Notes: a model not told the origin generated them from the letters alone. Positions 27,106 through 57,428 are shown, numbered from the stretch's first letter. The stretch is 64,000 nt of DNA from Gammaproteobacteria bacterium (GCA_016744065.1 JADGFA010000010.1:21146-85145), one strand, 5' to 3'. Program-made: numbers and translations.

Positions 27106-27729
27106 TTAAAAATCACCGACAACGTCAGTTCCTTCAGGCGCAACAAATTCAAAATAAGAAACTTTAAATTCCGGGTTAACCACCAGTTGCTCAAATTCTA
27201 TTTCTGTTTGCTGCTCAAAATTATCGATAAAGCGCATGGTTTTAATCGCGCCATTCTGTAAACCGATCTGCATTTCCTTGAAATCACTATCTGCATCTTT
27301 AGGAATAAGCTTGATCCAAACCTGATCATGACTTTCAGGCATGACCGCTACAACAAACTCAATATTCAGTTTCTGATTTTTATCCAGCAAATTGACCGGT
27401 GATGATGCCAGTACCTGATCATAAGGACGAACGTTAACCTGCTCCAGTTCTGAGTCGTACATCCAGATTTTTCTACCATTGGATATTATATTCTGTGGAT
27501 AAGGCAATATATAATCCCAACGAAATTTACCTGGGCGCTGCATGCTTAAGCTACCGGCTGATTGCTGTAATAAATAACCGTATTTATCGACTAACTTTTG
27601 CTGAAAACGCGCAGAAAGTGTTTGGGTATTATCGAGAAATGTTTCTAACACTATTTGTGTTGGTGTTTCTTCTGCATTTAGTATAAAACTACTCAATAGC
27701 AAACAAATTGAAAAAAAGTTTTTTAACAT
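27106..27729 (-). CDS. lolA: Outer-membrane lipoprotein carrier protein LolA
   Basis: 207 aa with signal peptide. LSARFQQ and FRWDY motifs typical of LolA. Conserved rarA-lolA-ftsK neighbourhood. Confidence 0.85.
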   Translation of the reverse strand: MLKNFFSICLLLSSFILNAEETPTQIVLETFLDNTQTLSARFQQKLVDKYGYLLQQSAGSLSMQRPGKFRWDYILPYPQNIISNGRKIWMYDSELEQVNVRPYDQVLASSPVNLLDKNQKLNIEFVVAVMPESHDQVWIKLIPKDADSDFKEMQIGLQNGAIKTMRFIDNFEQQTEIEFEQLVVNPEFKVSYFEFVAPEGTDVVGDF

Positions 27730-52057: not shown

Positions 52058-52151
52058 TGATGTATCTCCCTCGAGAATATACACAGGGGATGGAGTGCAA
52101 AAAACGCGCGCTTTCTCCGATGGATAAGTACCTGAACAAAGTGATATACAA

Positions 52152-53405
52152 TTAAAAATAATATCTTAAACTTGTATATAAACTGAATGGGTAAGAGCCG
52201 AACTCAGAGCCTGAATTTATCTGCTGAGGTGACACCTGGGTTTCAAGCCCATCACCATAACTTAAATACATTCCAAAATCTGAATATAAATTCTCTGTCC
52301 AGCTAACTTCACCGACTACATTTACAAAAATAGACTGATCACCTAAATTAATAAAACCGCTGCTATTCAAGGTTATCAACGGCGTAACAATCCATGAAAC
52401 GGCGGTAATCAAACAATGCTTCCCCAGCAGAAAAACACCTGCTTTCTGATATGGAAACTGGCTAACCAACTGTAGGTATTCATCAGGTTTACCACTGCCC
52501 GCCCCATTATAATGGTATTCAACTGACGCTATAATATATTCATTAAGCGCATAATCTGAACCAATAGAGGTGCGCCAATAATTATTTTCTCCATAACTTC
52601 CTACATCCATATAGGCTGTTTCAAACCAGAACCCAGAATCACCTATTGCACGCTCCAGGCCTCCACCTAACAACCAGGCATCATCAAGATAAATCATTAT
52701 CAACTCAATATCATTACCATCAATTGAATTTTTACTTCGAATAAATGCCGCACTATTTTCTCTCTTTGCATTTTCACCAATGATAAACCCTGTATCTAAC
52801 ACTGAGAAATCACCTAAAGCGGCCTGATAACGCACAGCATCAATACCGACCCTGTATTCCTGGTTAAGCGTCTGGATATTAAAAGGTATGAATATATCGG
52901 TTGGATTAATAAACCGGGAAGAACCAAAAGAGATAACCTGACGACCAATGGTAAAATCGCCCTGTTCATTACTGTATTGATAATTCAGACGATCAAGATT
53001 TTGAAATACCCGTACGTGATTACCATATTGATCAAGCTCCGCATCTAAATCTTTATAACGATAAAGAGTAGAACCGGTTGATAAAGTTGACGCAATGCCA
53101 TTAGCACCTCCCACCAGGGATGTATTTGAATAATAGACTGGCTGCATTTCATAATGAACTTCTACATTACCAGTGTTTTCTGTAAACCCGCTGGCCATAA
53201 GCCGTATCGCATTCTGTGACTGATAACCACCATCAAACTCTTCTGATGTCATCATTGAGGCATTTTCAAATTCTATTTCATCCTGTAAAAGGGCATATGA
53301 TTTAATATAACCCGCATAAGTAAAATCAAGCGCCTGTATTGATGTCACATTTAATAACATAATCAAAAACAACCAGTAACTAAATTTATAAAACTGATCA
53401 TTCAT
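52152..53405 (-). CDS. Probable outer-membrane beta-barrel protein, last gene of the Lol-like operon
   Basis: Start placed at the MNDQFYKFSYWLFLIMLLNVTSIQA signal peptide. Alternating amphipathic pattern. C-terminal ...SLRYYF with terminal Phe. Family not identified (FadL-sized). Confidence 0.45.
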   Translation of the reverse strand: MNDQFYKFSYWLFLIMLLNVTSIQALDFTYAGYIKSYALLQDEIEFENASMMTSEEFDGGYQSQNAIRLMASGFTENTGNVEVHYEMQPVYYSNTSLVGGANGIASTLSTGSTLYRYKDLDAELDQYGNHVRVFQNLDRLNYQYSNEQGDFTIGRQVISFGSSRFINPTDIFIPFNIQTLNQEYRVGIDAVRYQAALGDFSVLDTGFIIGENAKRENSAAFIRSKNSIDGNDIELIMIYLDDAWLLGGGLERAIGDSGFWFETAYMDVGSYGENNYWRTSIGSDYALNEYIIASVEYHYNGAGSGKPDEYLQLVSQFPYQKAGVFLLGKHCLITAVSWIVTPLITLNSSGFINLGDQSIFVNVVGEVSWTENLYSDFGMYLSYGDGLETQVSPQQINSGSEFGSYPFSLYTSLRYYF

Positions 53406-53412
53406 AATTTTT

Positions 53413-54105
53413 TTAAGCACTGCGCCTTTCATCACCAACAATACAGCCGTCATGAAGCTTTATGATTCTGTTTGCTCTTTCCATCACCATTGGATCATGA
53501 GTTGAAAACACAAATGTCATGTTTTCTTTTTCATTAAGCTGTTTCATCATATCAAGCAGGGCTGCACCCGTATGGGAATCTAAATTCGCTGTAGGCTCAT
53601 CTGCTAGAATTAACCTCGGTTGTGATACCATGGCACGGGCAACTGCAACACGTTGCTGCTGCCCACCTGACAACTGCGCCGGCCGACGATTTTCCTTACC
53701 CTGCAAACCAACAGCCTGTAAAATTTCTTTAACGCGTTTACTGCGTTCCTGTGCAGGTACATTCTGTAATAACATAATATACTCAATATTTTCTTCCGCT
53801 GACAATACGGGTATCAGGTTATATGCCTGAAAAATAAAACCAATGTGATCACGACGAAAGTCTGACAGTTCAGTGCCACTCATCTGGCTAATTTTTTTAC
53901 TATCCAGAAAAATATCCCCTGAAGTCGGTTCATCTAAACCACCTACAAGCTGCAACAAAGTAGACTTACCTGAACCAGAAGGACCAATAATCGCCGTAAA
54001 CTCACCTTCTTCAATAATAAGATTTACATCGCTCAATGCCTTTACCAGCGTTTCTTCTTTACCAAATGAACGACATAGTTTTTTTGTTTCTATCACATGG
54101 CTCAT
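53413..54105 (-). CDS. ABC transporter ATP-binding protein, LolD/MacB family
   Basis: 230 aa. Walker A GPSGSGKST, signature LSGGQQQRVAVARA, Walker B ILADEPT, H-loop STHD. Confidence 0.85.
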   Translation of the reverse strand: MSHVIETKKLCRSFGKEETLVKALSDVNLIIEEGEFTAIIGPSGSGKSTLLQLVGGLDEPTSGDIFLDSKKISQMSGTELSDFRRDHIGFIFQAYNLIPVLSAEENIEYIMLLQNVPAQERSKRVKEILQAVGLQGKENRRPAQLSGGQQQRVAVARAMVSQPRLILADEPTANLDSHTGAALLDMMKQLNEKENMTFVFSTHDPMVMERANRIIKLHDGCIVGDERRSA

Positions 54106-54114
54106 AAGTATTCC

Positions 54115-55338
54115 CTATAAAACTTTTTTCATCGCTAACGATGGCTGTAAACGTGCAGCATGTAATGCGGGATAAACACACGATAAAACGGTTATCATTA
54201 ATATAAAACCAGATATTTTAATAAAGGCCAATATATCAATAACAAGATAAACAGGTTCACTCATGCTAACACCTGAAAACTCAGCACCTGAATAATCTAT
54301 ACCTGCTATTGACTTCCAGTAACTAAGCAAACCACCCAATAACAAACCGGCCATAACACTCAATAATGCAATATATAAACCTTCCAGTAAGATCAACCAG
54401 AACAACTGATGCGGCCGCGTGCCTATTGCAAGTAAAATACCAAACTCATGGTGCCTTTCATAAATAGACATAAACATTGAATTAATTAAACCCAGTGCGA
54501 CTAATAAGGACATAATAATTGAAACGATTAAAGTACTATACTGACTCATATCAAGGATATTACTTAGCTGGGGAATTAACTGTCGCCAGCTTAACGTTTC
54601 CAGCTCATTATTATTTAACTCATCCCATAATTTAATACTTTTATCACTTGCCTGATCGACACTATCCAGGCGCAGTACTATTTCATGCACACCCTGAATA
54701 TTTATTATTTCCTTCCCCTGCTGCAAATTAATCACAGCAATGCCCTTATTCATAAATCGATCATCGAAATGATAAATTCCTGAAACTCGAAATAGTGCCT
54801 GCGATAAATCTCCACCATGCGCCTGTGATAGCGTTATCACCAGACGATCGCCCAGATCAACTTCCAGCAAATCGGCAAGGTCATCACCTATAATAATTTC
54901 ACCTTTTTTATCACTCAGAAAAACACCTTTTAGCATTGCCTGCTTTAACTTGCTAACCTGCATTTCTCTTTTTGCTTCAACTCCATAAACAATCACTGAG
55001 GTAACATTTTCTGAGGACGATAACATGGCACCGGTTATTACTCTTGGGGCATAATTTTTTATCTGTTTAATATTTTCAAGCGTCTGATAAAGGTGCGCAT
55101 TATCTTTTAGGTAAATATCTATATCGTTTGCTTCTCTAAACCCCTGCTTATGTATCTGCGCATCACCTAAAAAAGTTTCTGTACTCGTTTTTATCATTGA
55201 AACTGACATACCACGAATAAACGCATCGGTAAATAAAAGCGCAGCCAAACCACTGGCTATTAGAAAAACGGTTAAACCTGTACGCCGCGTATTGCGAAAA
55301 ATATTACGCAATGCCAGACGATAGTTTAAATGTATCAT
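54115..55338 (-). CDS. FtsX-family ABC permease (LolC/LolE-like, 4 TM + periplasmic domain)
   Basis: 407 aa. N-terminal TM, ~230-aa periplasmic domain, three C-terminal TMs. LolC/E-like size and topology. Confidence 0.75.
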   Translation of the reverse strand: MIHLNYRLALRNIFRNTRRTGLTVFLIASGLAALLFTDAFIRGMSVSMIKTSTETFLGDAQIHKQGFREANDIDIYLKDNAHLYQTLENIKQIKNYAPRVITGAMLSSSENVTSVIVYGVEAKREMQVSKLKQAMLKGVFLSDKKGEIIIGDDLADLLEVDLGDRLVITLSQAHGGDLSQALFRVSGIYHFDDRFMNKGIAVINLQQGKEIINIQGVHEIVLRLDSVDQASDKSIKLWDELNNNELETLSWRQLIPQLSNILDMSQYSTLIVSIIMSLLVALGLINSMFMSIYERHHEFGILLAIGTRPHQLFWLILLEGLYIALLSVMAGLLLGGLLSYWKSIAGIDYSGAEFSGVSMSEPVYLVIDILAFIKISGFILMITVLSCVYPALHAARLQPSLAMKKVL

Positions 55339-56561
55339 ACGGCCTGTAATGCCTGTAATGGTGAGATACGTGCTGCTCGAATCCCTGGAATAAGGCTCAC
55401 TAATAAGGTACTACCAATAACAACTAATGCCGGAACACCGATGGTAAACCAGCTTATTTCTCCACGCATAGATTCAAACAACACACCCCCCATATCAACA
55501 GGTTGTGGCATAGCAATGCCCTCAACGGTTAACCAGTAATTAACCGGCAAAGAAACGAGCAAACCAGAAAAGCAACTAACCAGGGAGAGAAAAAGCGACT
55601 CAAGCATAATTAATTTAAAAATACCCACTGGCTGAGTACCTATTGCTCTTAAAACACCAAACTCTCGCGTCCGTTCCAGTGTTCCCATAAGCACTGTATT
55701 CAATACCCCTATTGAAACAATAAAAATAATGATACCCATAGAGACATAATTGCCTTTTTTATCGAGCTGCATACTTTTATAAAATACTTTTTCTACCTGT
55801 TGCCAGGAGCTGACCTTTAAATCATCCTGTTGCAATGTGCTTTGTAAGTTTTCACTGAACTTCTGAGCAAGTGAATGGTGGTGCAGGCTAATCACCAGCT
55901 CATGCACCTGACCTCCCATGCTAAGAAACTGACGCATTCCATTTAAACTTAAATAAACATTCATACGCTCATAAGACTCAGATGTACCAACAATGGCCAC
56001 AACCTCAAAGATATCATTAGCAATAGACCCATCAACTCCCTGAGAAATTAACACCAGCTCATCACCTACATTTAAATGCAAATTTTTAGCAAGCGCCTTA
56101 CCCATCATTGCAGGAAAATAACCATTAACGGTCATTCCATTCGATAAATACACGCCCTGATTTACTTTCTTTTTTAGATAAGTTGTTGCCGATTCTCGTT
56201 GAGGGTCAATACCTATCACATTAGCCGGAAACGTTTTGTTTTTACCGTATGCCAGAGAAGGCCCATAAATCCTGGCAGTTACACTAACAACCTGTGGATC
56301 TTCTTGGATCAACGCAATTAAAGCGGCTGAATTATTAATGCGTTTAAAAAGCGAGGGTCGGTCAAGATAATTGGACTTATGAATTTGCACATGCCCCGTA
56401 TGGTCACGCGTAAACAGATCGATCATATTGCTGTAGCTTCCCTCTGTCATTGACAGCATAAGAGACAGCAAAAAATAACCGCCCCCCATACTCAAAACAG
56501 TGAGTAAGCTACGCCGTCGATTACGTTGTATATTACGTAATGCTAACTTTAGAATCAGCAT
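55335..56561 (-). CDS. FtsX-family ABC permease (LolC/LolE-like)
   Basis: 408 aa, same topology as its neighbour. Overlaps the neighbouring permease by 4 bp. Confidence 0.75.
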   Translation of the reverse strand: MLILKLALRNIQRNRRRSLLTVLSMGGGYFLLSLMLSMTEGSYSNMIDLFTRDHTGHVQIHKSNYLDRPSLFKRINNSAALIALIQEDPQVVSVTARIYGPSLAYGKNKTFPANVIGIDPQRESATTYLKKKVNQGVYLSNGMTVNGYFPAMMGKALAKNLHLNVGDELVLISQGVDGSIANDIFEVVAIVGTSESYERMNVYLSLNGMRQFLSMGGQVHELVISLHHHSLAQKFSENLQSTLQQDDLKVSSWQQVEKVFYKSMQLDKKGNYVSMGIIIFIVSIGVLNTVLMGTLERTREFGVLRAIGTQPVGIFKLIMLESLFLSLVSCFSGLLVSLPVNYWLTVEGIAMPQPVDMGGVLFESMRGEISWFTIGVPALVVIGSTLLVSLIPGIRAARISPLQALQAV

Positions 56562-57310
56562 TACTGAACACGTTTTTGCAAATTACGAAGGGTAAAAACA
56601 TTGTTTTTTATTTTGCTATCAAACTCAAGTTCAATATATTCAATTTCAGTTTTATGGCCCTGTTTGTTAAATGGCACCATACTCATCTTTGCTGGCAGAT
56701 TTTTACCTGAAAAGTCACGAACATCACTAAAATGCATGCTACGTACTTTTTCACCTTTTTCATTGAAATAGCTCTGCTCAACGGGTAGCAAACTCGCTTT
56801 CTCAACAATAATTTCTATTCTCGCCCACACAGTTACCGTATCTTTTTTTGGAGTTAAAGTAAGCTGATAGTGGGTTTCTGTCTGTTTCTTCTCCACATGG
56901 TATTCTTTTACCAGTGATACCTCACGCACCAGGTCATCATTGGTAAAATCCGACCCCATCCATGACCCCATCATCATGGAGGGTGGCACTTTAATTACTT
57001 TATTTATTTTAGGGAAGTAATTCCACATTTCACGACCTTTTTTTAAGGTAGCGACTCCACGATCTTTTTTAGGTGATAGTATTCGAATAAATGTATCATC
57101 CATTCCAGCCGTCCAGCTTTGTAATTCAAGGGTACGGTTCCAGTCTGGCGTAACTATATGCATTTTTATGGTTGAGATGGAGCTATCAGAACGATATAAC
57201 TCATCCATTTTTTTTAACAGGTCAACTGCTTCGGTATCTGCATATGCAACCACATTAAATACAGATACCATTATCACTAGAATATAAGTAACAAAATAAT
57301 GTCTCATCAC
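56561..57310 (-). CDS. LolA-fold outer-membrane lipoprotein-sorting-like periplasmic protein
   Basis: 249 aa with signal peptide. Sequence resembles the 'outer membrane lipoprotein-sorting protein' (LolA-like) family that accompanies FtsX/ABC exporters. Stop is adjacent to the downstream permease start. Confidence 0.5.
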   Translation of the reverse strand: MMRHYFVTYILVIMVSVFNVVAYADTEAVDLLKKMDELYRSDSSISTIKMHIVTPDWNRTLELQSWTAGMDDTFIRILSPKKDRGVATLKKGREMWNYFPKINKVIKVPPSMMMGSWMGSDFTNDDLVREVSLVKEYHVEKKQTETHYQLTLTPKKDTVTVWARIEIIVEKASLLPVEQSYFNEKGEKVRSMHFSDVRDFSGKNLPAKMSMVPFNKQGHKTEIEYIELEFDSKIKNNVFTLRNLQKRVQ

Positions 57311-57428
57311 TACTCCTACTTATTATTAACACTCTCTACATAAAAACTTAAAACATATCCTTACCTGCTGAACACAAATACTCAGTCATCGCTCAGGTTT
57401 AAAAACCACAAATAGTAATTCAATTAAC

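Follow-up and report, generated by a model that had tools for sequence, protein, structure and literature searches.

A conserved five-gene cassette of marine Gammaproteobacteria predicts a Lol-like export module with its own LolA-fold carrier and outer-membrane barrel

The transit of hydrophobic molecules across the Gram-negative periplasm is known for few systems. Type VII ATP-binding cassette (ABC) transporters such as MacB, LolCDE and FtsEX use ATP to move their periplasmic domains and in this way drive substrates outward from the outer face of the inner membrane, and not through the bilayer. In the Lol system of Escherichia coli, the Hook hairpin of LolC docks the carrier LolA. A cassette of five genes that recalls this system was analysed in a 64,000-nucleotide stretch from a Gammaproteobacteria bacterium (GCA_016744065.1, JADGFA010000010.1:21146-85145), referred to below as the window. 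In order, the genes of this ∼5.2 kb cassette predict a LolA-like carrier, two permeases (FtsX1 and FtsX2), an ATPase and an outer-membrane beta-barrel. The cassette is judged to have an even chance of being a self-contained trans-envelope export module, Lol-like in build but separate from the Lol system, for an amphipathic or lipidic cargo. A full-text literature search found no study characterising this cassette.

The E. coli LolABCDE system, and the LolDF form in which LolF is homodimeric, resemble the cassette in that it includes two MacB_PCD plus FtsX paralogues, a LolD-type ATPase and a soluble LolA-fold carrier. However, all scores obtained here are below the equivalog cut-offs and the carrier belongs to PF17131 and not to the LolA family. 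In E. coli the outer-membrane partner is the lipoprotein LolB, whereas here it is an 18-stranded integral barrel. The order carrier-permease-permease-ATPase-barrel also differs from lolCDE, as pointed out in a preliminary description made from the sequence, and the cassette was recovered from particular marine lineages only and coexists, in the window, with a true lolA. MacAB-TolC likewise couples a type VII ABC transporter to an outer-membrane barrel, but the cassette includes no membrane-fusion protein, its ATPase is a separate polypeptide and its barrel is not of the TolC type. An unrelated pair of genes for an RND protein and a membrane-fusion protein was seen 3 kb downstream of the cassette in one Colwellia locus.

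Comparable gene sets have been reported in other genera. Borrelia BBJ23-29 specify a MacB-like transporter, a LolA-like protein and an Omp85 barrel, for which non-polar ligand export was predicted on computational grounds only (PMC13078400). There, the permease is homodimeric, the barrel is of the Omp85 type and two TPR proteins are present, whereas the cassette predicts a putative heterodimer and an OprD/AlgE-like barrel and has no TPR protein. Co-fitness on Tween 20 and fatty esters links a Pseudomonas DUF1302 barrel and LolA-like protein of the DUF1329 type (PP_0765/0766 and PP_2018/2019) to an RND pump and a BNR protein (bioRxiv 10.1101/2020.07.04.188060). The combination of a barrel, a LolA-like protein and an inner-membrane exporter is the same, and the structure of a DUF1329 protein [4Z48] matches the carrier described here (E 3.6e-8), but the exporter in Pseudomonas is an RND pump and the genes are in separate operons, in contrast to an ABC transporter and a barrel without a DUF1302 match. 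Thalassolituus oleivorans carries TOL_3187 and TOL_3188, an MMPL/RND protein fused to a LolA-like domain and an adjacent predicted porin without conserved domains, both strongly induced on the n-C28 alkane (PMC6304351). According to the published description this is also a LolA-like domain joined to an exporter beside a porin, differing in that the domain is fused to the MMPL/RND protein. In these analogous sets, the theme of an exporter, a LolA-like carrier and a barrel recurs with different energisers and barrels, and in two of these cases it is tied to very hydrophobic substrates. A further link, to AupA/AupB as possible DUF1302/DUF1329 proteins, was considered and dropped because the paper does not say so.

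To place the cassette in other genomes, the barrel alignment was scanned against GTDB using one genome per species. This gave 184 confirmed loci, of which the best 80 were retained, each with no more than 10 kb of flank. The five window proteins were compared with the kept loci using tblastn, and a cassette was counted as complete where all five genes were found at >70% coverage each. Every informative locus (70/70) has the five genes on one strand and in an unchanged order, and the other loci end at contig edges. The arrangement is therefore far beyond chance, and the neighbourhood check named beforehand, conservation of the LolA-like and barrel genes with the transporter, came out in favour of the preliminary description. 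Identity to the window proteins is highest for the ATPase (61-79%), followed by the carrier (45-75%), FtsX1 (38-74%), FtsX2 (35-68%) and the barrel (32-66%). The divergences of the five proteins are correlated (Spearman 0.37-0.78), which fits inheritance as a block. Both permease paralogues were found in every locus, and the retention of two distinct paralogues throughout fits an obligate heterodimer.

The hosts include Colwellia, Litorilituus and Thalassotalea (Colwelliaceae), Kangiellaceae, Oleispira, and many metagenome-assembled genomes (MAGs) of the Pseudomonadales/Cellvibrionales type, namely OM182, HTCC2143, Spongiibacteraceae, Oceanicoccus, Azotimanducaceae and Pseudohongiella. Copies that have diverged further were found in MAGs with the labels Lentisphaeria, Aminicenantes, Poribacteria and Calditrichota. 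Among named organisms, the nearest to the window in its cassette proteins is the Galathealinum brachiosum tubeworm endosymbiont (77-79% identity). The same cassette was also found in independent gene calls with precomputed Pfam assignments from the source metagenome (BORC21-1, SAMN14086998), Colwellia psychrerythraea ND2E and a JGI contig. Some loci depart from the common form. The FtsX1 gene is duplicated in tandem in one (L064:5427-7862), and a 2.2 kb insertion separates the carrier gene from FtsX1 in a MAG labelled Poribacteria (L081:4569-6806). Two loci labelled Candidatus Fonsibacter ubiquis (L045) and Flavobacterium sp. (L069) carry cassettes that resemble the Pseudomonadales type, in which the barrel shares ∼40% identity with the query, and are probably mis-binned contigs rather than true occurrences in those taxa.

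In the window, the cassette consists of five co-directional open reading frames (ORFs) that run on the minus strand from 57307 to 52152 (Table 1). The preliminary description of a five-gene operon was right in its coordinates to within a few bases, and the tight coupling it had reported was evident at all four junctions, where the intergenic spacing is between -4 and +9 bases. Read from the sequence, the TAA stop of the carrier gene and the ATG of FtsX1 have one base in common, FtsX1 and FtsX2 overlap by the 4 bases ATGA, and a gap of 9 bases separates FtsX2 from the ATPase gene. Two starts needed attention. The carrier gene had been assigned a GTG start at 57310 (249 aa), but the ATG at 57307, which has AGGAG just before it, is likelier. 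The longest barrel ORF, which is also that in public gene calls, starts at an ATG at 53453, predicts 433 aa and overlaps the ATPase gene by 41 bases. The ATG at 53405 (MNDQ...), which leaves a gap of 7 bases after the ATPase gene, is likelier because the alignment with 417 aa homologues begins at the Met in this position.

The first gene predicts a protein that matches PF17131 with an E value of 8.1e-47 (159.7 bits, cut-off 30) over positions 2-184 of the 184 in the profile. PF17131 is LolA_like, named TP_0789-like in newer Pfam, with the description "outer membrane lipoprotein-sorting protein". Against the LolA equivalog TIGR00547, which with PF03548 defines the LolA family, the carrier scored only 17.7 bits and the cut-off of 112 was not passed. 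The nearest solved structure is 3BUU (NE2245, LolA superfamily; E 2.9e-13), aligned over almost the full length, and the alignments with 9TP6, 3BK5 and the DUF1329 protein 4Z48 are weaker. The predicted signal peptide is of the signal-peptidase-I type and ends in VAYA|DTE, with no lipobox. A lipobox-like motif was also absent from 116 of 120 carrier orthologues, and the remaining 4 have the Cys within the hydrophobic core, before an AQA|D cleavage site. With this type of signal and no lipobox, the carrier is a soluble periplasmic protein, and its profile match, homology to 3BUU and signal peptide agree with the LolA-fold periplasmic protein proposed at the outset. The window also includes a genuine lolA, as had been stated, which scored 201.9 bits against TIGR00547 (cut-off 112) and is located between ftsK and rarA.

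FtsX1 and FtsX2 are paralogues with 29% identity, and each has the size and the MacB_PCD and FtsX domains foreseen for a pair of LolC/E-sized permeases (FtsX1: MacB_PCD E 1.5e-15, FtsX E 3.9e-15; FtsX2: FtsX E 7.7e-18, MacB_PCD E 2e-10). The former domain is a MacB-like periplasmic core and the latter a C-terminal module; both are above the gathering score in both proteins and a partner ATPase is present, as in the type VII ABC (MacB/FtsX) superfamily. The placement of the permeases relative to LolC, LolE and MacB was based on bit scores against models and PDB sequences. The lolCE model TIGR02212 gave 117.1 bits for FtsX1 and 129 bits for FtsX2, with the cut-off of 362.45 not passed. LolE models gave 60-70 bits (60-64 for FtsX1) against cut-offs of 439-540, and the LolC model NF008076 gave 59.8 bits for FtsX2 against a cut-off of 473, also not passed. 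Among solved structures, FtsX1 scored best with YtrF (51.5 bits), followed by LolF (48), LolE (41.8) and LolC (21.2), and FtsX2 with LolF (81.6), followed by LolC (51.2), LolE (43.1) and MacB (∼30). On these scores, FtsX1 is the more LolE-like paralogue and FtsX2 the more LolC/LolF-like.

The ATPase belongs to ABC_tran (E 1.2e-37, 130 bits). The LolD equivalog TIGR02211 gave 229.5 bits and the cut-off of 307.75 was not passed, and the N-terminal half of MacB gave 220 bits, consistent with the LolD/MacB-type ATPase originally named. The scores from the MacB, DevA and DarD (darobactin-export) models are all close to that of LolD, and the FtsE and YbbA models gave ∼200 bits.

The last gene predicts a protein with a signal peptide ending in SIQA|LD and the C-terminus RYYF, in keeping with the ∼415 aa barrel ending in Phe that had been recognised. 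No Pfam or NCBIfam match was found for the barrel and 62 homologues (63 family members), and the OprD/Occ (PF03573), AlgE (PF13372) and DUF1302 (PF06980) families gave no match among these 63 even at E<=1. PDB sequences likewise gave no match in a profile search with the barrel, up to E<=10. The initial AlphaFold2 model, which used an alignment of the 63 close homologues, was poor (predicted local distance difference test, pLDDT, 61.9) and was discarded. For a second model, the alignment was extended by profile search to relatives at 37-45% identity. This model is confident (pLDDT 85.7, predicted template modelling score 0.82) and has 18 transmembrane strands, the first of which starts right after the signal peptide, so that there is no N-terminal plug. 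Its best structural matches (values in brackets) are OccAB4 (24.8), OccAB3 (24.3), OpdQ (24.1), ChiP (23.4), Campylobacter MOMP (22.9), AlgE (22.0), Wzi (20.7) and maltoporin (19.5), with sequence identities of 7-12%, and the likeness is of fold only. OprD/Occ, ChiP, AlgE and Wzi are 18-stranded monomeric barrels, but none of their Pfam families is matched here and their genes are not accompanied by those for a type VII ABC transporter or LolA-like protein. A FadL-like hatch, suggested in the preliminary description, did not hold. FadL/TodX-type channels have 14 strands and an N-terminal hatch, whereas the barrel has 18 strands and no plug and resembles OprD/Occ, AlgE and Wzi; FadL and TodX were not among its top 60 structural matches.

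A profile search of 1.84 billion representatives placed the barrel in a family of 3390 clusters (50% identity) at E<=1e-3, 2126 at 1e-10 and 544 at 1e-30. Two motifs are invariant in the family, GDLTIGRQ..FGSAR.INPTD.F.PF…LN.EYR.G.DA.R and EYHYNGAG. By strand order in the model, the first corresponds to strand 5 and extracellular loop 3 (L3), and the second to the junction of strand 13 and loop 7 (L7). In Occ channels, L3 and L7 fold inward and form the constriction. An inward fold of L3 would be expected here by analogy, and the L3 segment of the model is of low confidence (pLDDT 55-62). The conserved residues of the motifs are mostly charged, which in the context of the model suggests a specific polar site or pore rather than a greasy lateral gate. 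A subset of the barrel homologues (520-580 aa) have an N-terminal SPOR peptidoglycan-binding domain that is absent from the window barrel. In P0310, P0313, P0330, P0335 and P0342 (∼540-560 aa) the extension is ∼130-150 aa, and the SPOR match in P0310 scored 25.2 bits (cut-off 21). This domain would tether the barrel to the cell wall.

The type VII mechanism and the list of parts make a relay the most economical model. FtsX1 and FtsX2 would form a heterodimeric type VII ("mechanotransmission") ABC transporter, driven by two copies of the LolD-like ATPase, that draws its cargo, amphipathic or lipid-anchored, out of the inner membrane at the outer leaflet. The cargo would then be handed to the soluble LolA-fold carrier, which would shield its hydrophobic part across the periplasm and deliver it to the dedicated 18-stranded barrel. 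The charged inward loops L3 and L7 may provide the specific site or channel of the barrel, with the cargo reaching the outer membrane, the surface or the medium. The interpretation originally put forward, a dedicated route for a specific hydrophobic cargo, is supported as far as sequence analysis reaches. Several observations nevertheless weigh against it. The charge of the constriction motifs is odd for a purely hydrophobic cargo, and 18-stranded barrels of the OprD/Occ type classically take up small polar solutes and are not lipid insertases. Docking of the carrier on the permeases is a predicted part of the relay, and here the FtsX2 segment aligned with the LolC Hook (...SASQFTPMGRIPSQ...) is ∼5 residues shorter, as is that of FtsX1, as judged by alignment only, which is a weak point. 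In addition, clustering of the flanking ORFs revealed no cargo gene.

Alternatively, the cassette could be the housekeeping LolCDE of the organism in an unusual gene order. Among named families, the Lol models are the best for the permeases and ATPase, and the view of the genome, including the search for a second lolCDE, covers the 64 kb window of this contig, in which no further FtsX-type gene was found. However, the scores of the permeases (117 and 129 against 362) and the ATPase (229.5 against 307.75) are far under the equivalog cut-offs, and the window has its true LolA in another protein, whose gene has the usual ftsK-lolA-rarA neighbours. The recovery of the cassette from particular marine lineages only is unlike that of an essential system, and in Colwellia it is an insert after parB. 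Because of the sub-threshold scores, the private carrier, the barrel in place of LolB and the recovery from these marine lineages only, a housekeeping role is considered extremely unlikely. The near-equal scores of the ATPase on the MacB, DevA, darobactin-export and LolD models would also suit a MacB-like pump for efflux or detoxification, which expels a small amphipathic toxin, antimicrobial peptide, siderophore-like molecule or biosurfactant out of the periplasm or inner membrane, with the barrel as duct and the LolA-like protein as an adaptor or chaperone that replaces the membrane-fusion protein. A channel-like barrel with a charged constriction, as in AlgE, Occ and ChiP, agrees with such a pump, control by a sigma factor in some lineages (see below) would suit a response to stress or toxins, and the need for or induction of related sets of LolA-like protein and exporter on very hydrophobic substrates (bioRxiv 10.1101/2020.07.04.188060; PMC6304351) fits export of a surfactant. 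Nevertheless, the cassette has neither a membrane-fusion protein nor a TolC-type duct, and among solved structures the permeases are closest to LolF, LolC and LolE, with MacB far behind, which was counted in favour of the export module. The LolA fold carries acyl chains and is not known as a bridge between membranes, and a pump of this kind is rated as rather unlikely.

The direction of transport could also be reversed, in an Mla-like uptake or retrograde system that passes a hydrophobic nutrient or mislocalised lipid from an Occ-like channel via the LolA-like protein to the ABC complex. The best structural matches of the barrel, OccAB, OpdQ, ChiP and maltoporin, are uptake channels, and many of the marine hosts, such as Colwellia, Oleispira and Cellvibrionales, are hydrocarbon or lipid degraders. 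However, type VII ABC transporters (MacB, LolCDE, FtsEX) have no transmembrane path for the substrate and are not known to include an importer. Growth on Tween 20, fatty esters and n-C28 has been connected with analogous gene sets (bioRxiv 10.1101/2020.07.04.188060; PMC6304351), but the cassette is not consistently accompanied by catabolic genes. Uptake is considered unlikely, though the channel-like and charged nature of the barrel keeps both uptake and efflux in contention. Transport may not be involved at all if the complex acts like FtsEX or YbbAP, with movements of the periplasmic domains switching the LolA-like protein or the barrel, and with a target that may be linked to peptidoglycan. 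Type VII ABC systems do include pure mechanotransducers, the ATPase reaches ∼200 bits with the FtsE and YbbA models and some barrel homologues carry the SPOR domain, but that domain is limited to a subset that does not include the window barrel, the cassette has neither a hydrolase nor an activator domain, and the LolA fold and channel-like barrel indicate the handling of a ligand. A role purely in regulation is therefore very unlikely.

The sequences on either side of the cassette provide no fixed partner. When 939 flanking ORFs were clustered, no neighbour was shared widely across the loci, and no consistent catabolic or biosynthetic neighbours were linked to the cassette. The commonest flanking cluster, a short-chain dehydrogenase, was rejected as a fixed partner as it was found at 18 loci only, at distances of 12 bases to 9 kb. 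The lack of any universally conserved neighbour fits the earlier remark that the cargo is not encoded at the locus, and it is proposed that the cargo is made elsewhere in the genome. In the window, dnaE and a cytochrome-like gene are on one side and smr-surE-pcm on the other, and in Colwellia the cassette is inserted after mnmG-rsmG-parA-parB. As the flanks vary between clades, the cassette looks autonomous and appears to have been relocated many times.

Table 1. Positions of the cassette genes and of other features in the window, counted from its first base.
Feature	Coordinates	Strand	Basis or remark
Carrier, secreted periplasmic LolA-fold protein, 248 aa	56561..57307	-	PF17131
FtsX1, type VII ABC permease, 408 aa	55335..56561	-	MacB_PCD + FtsX
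FtsX2, type VII ABC permease, 407 aa	54115..55338	-	MacB_PCD + FtsX
ABC ATPase, LolD/MacB/DevA/FtsE subgroup, 230 aa	53413..54105	-	ABC_tran
Outer-membrane 18-stranded beta-barrel, 417 aa	52152..53405	-	signal peptide, C-terminal Phe, predicted structure
Intergenic leader 5' of carrier gene, 121 bases	57308..57428	-	AGGAG 6 bases before ATG 57307
Interval between barrel gene and convergent smr, 94 bases	52060-52151		
Secreted protein with three CxxCH motifs, 290 aa	57429-58301	-	directly upstream of cassette
True LolA	27106-27729		TIGR00547
ORF of 414 aa	36742-37986	+	no NCBIfam match

At ∼17 loci in MAGs of the Pseudomonadales/Cellvibrionales type, the cassette is immediately preceded, on its own strand, by genes for an extracytoplasmic function (ECF) sigma factor and a small DUF6768 membrane protein. 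The pair lies ∼300-550 bases upstream in L023, L024, L028, L033, L034, L037, L042, L047, L055, L062-L064 and L068, and remnants were detected in L029, L056, L065 and L070. The DUF6768 gene is separated from the carrier gene by -3 to 214 bases, and its product is possibly the anti-sigma factor of the ECF sigma factor. Because this pair is directly upstream, the cassette is probably under the control of an extracytoplasmic signal in part of its range. The pair is absent from the window and from Colwellia. In the window, the promoter of the operon is presumably in the 121-base leader. A scan of the leader found only consensus-level matches that were not commoner than in shuffled sequence and the promoter was not located. 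Terminator-like matches were likewise not commoner than in shuffled sequence. The interval between the barrel gene and the convergent smr folds no better than its shuffles (z +1.1) and includes no convincing intrinsic terminator.

The gene immediately upstream of the leader predicts a secreted protein with three haem-binding motifs, and its only Pfam match, to MtrC/MtrF domain II/IV, is sub-threshold (24.7 bits, cut-off 30). It was ruled out as a member of the cassette as it is absent beside the cassette in 80/80 related loci, and its product appears to be an orphan small multihaem cytochrome. Elsewhere in the window, the 414 aa ORF overlaps the pair of genes for which it is directly upstream, weakly assigned to a substrate-binding protein and a permease of a zinc/manganese-type ABC system. 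The 64 kb window has neither a tRNA gene nor an Rfam family that reaches the gathering threshold.

What appears to be new here is a Lol-like type VII ABC system that has its own PF17131 carrier and a dedicated barrel outside Pfam and NCBIfam, and that is widespread in marine Gammaproteobacteria. A more specific form of the export module is offered tentatively, and is doubtful in its full extent. In this form, a LolCDE-like extractor, a LolA-fold chaperone and a purpose-built 18-stranded channel would make up a dedicated envelope route that brings a specific amphipathic lipid to the cell surface or releases it, that is switched by ECF sigma factors in many lineages and that is widespread in marine bacteria living on hydrophobic substrates. 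Candidate cargoes of such a route are a glycolipid, a biosurfactant-like lipid and a lipoprotein subset.

Nothing in the cassette yet demonstrates a new principle. With an energiser, a carrier and an outer-membrane partner in ∼5.2 kb and no fixed neighbours, it is a compact and portable whole that could be cloned and reconstituted. A role for the cassette would annotate hundreds to thousands of hypothetical proteins, given the 544 barrel clusters at the strictest threshold. The hosts, and the analogous gene sets connected with Tween 20, fatty esters and long-chain alkanes, suggest, by analogy only, a relevance to the handling of oil and lipids by marine bacteria. If true, a dedicated lipid route of this kind would join the short list of machines that traffic lipids from the inner to the outer membrane, which comprises Lol, Lpt, Mla and the AsmA-like bridges.

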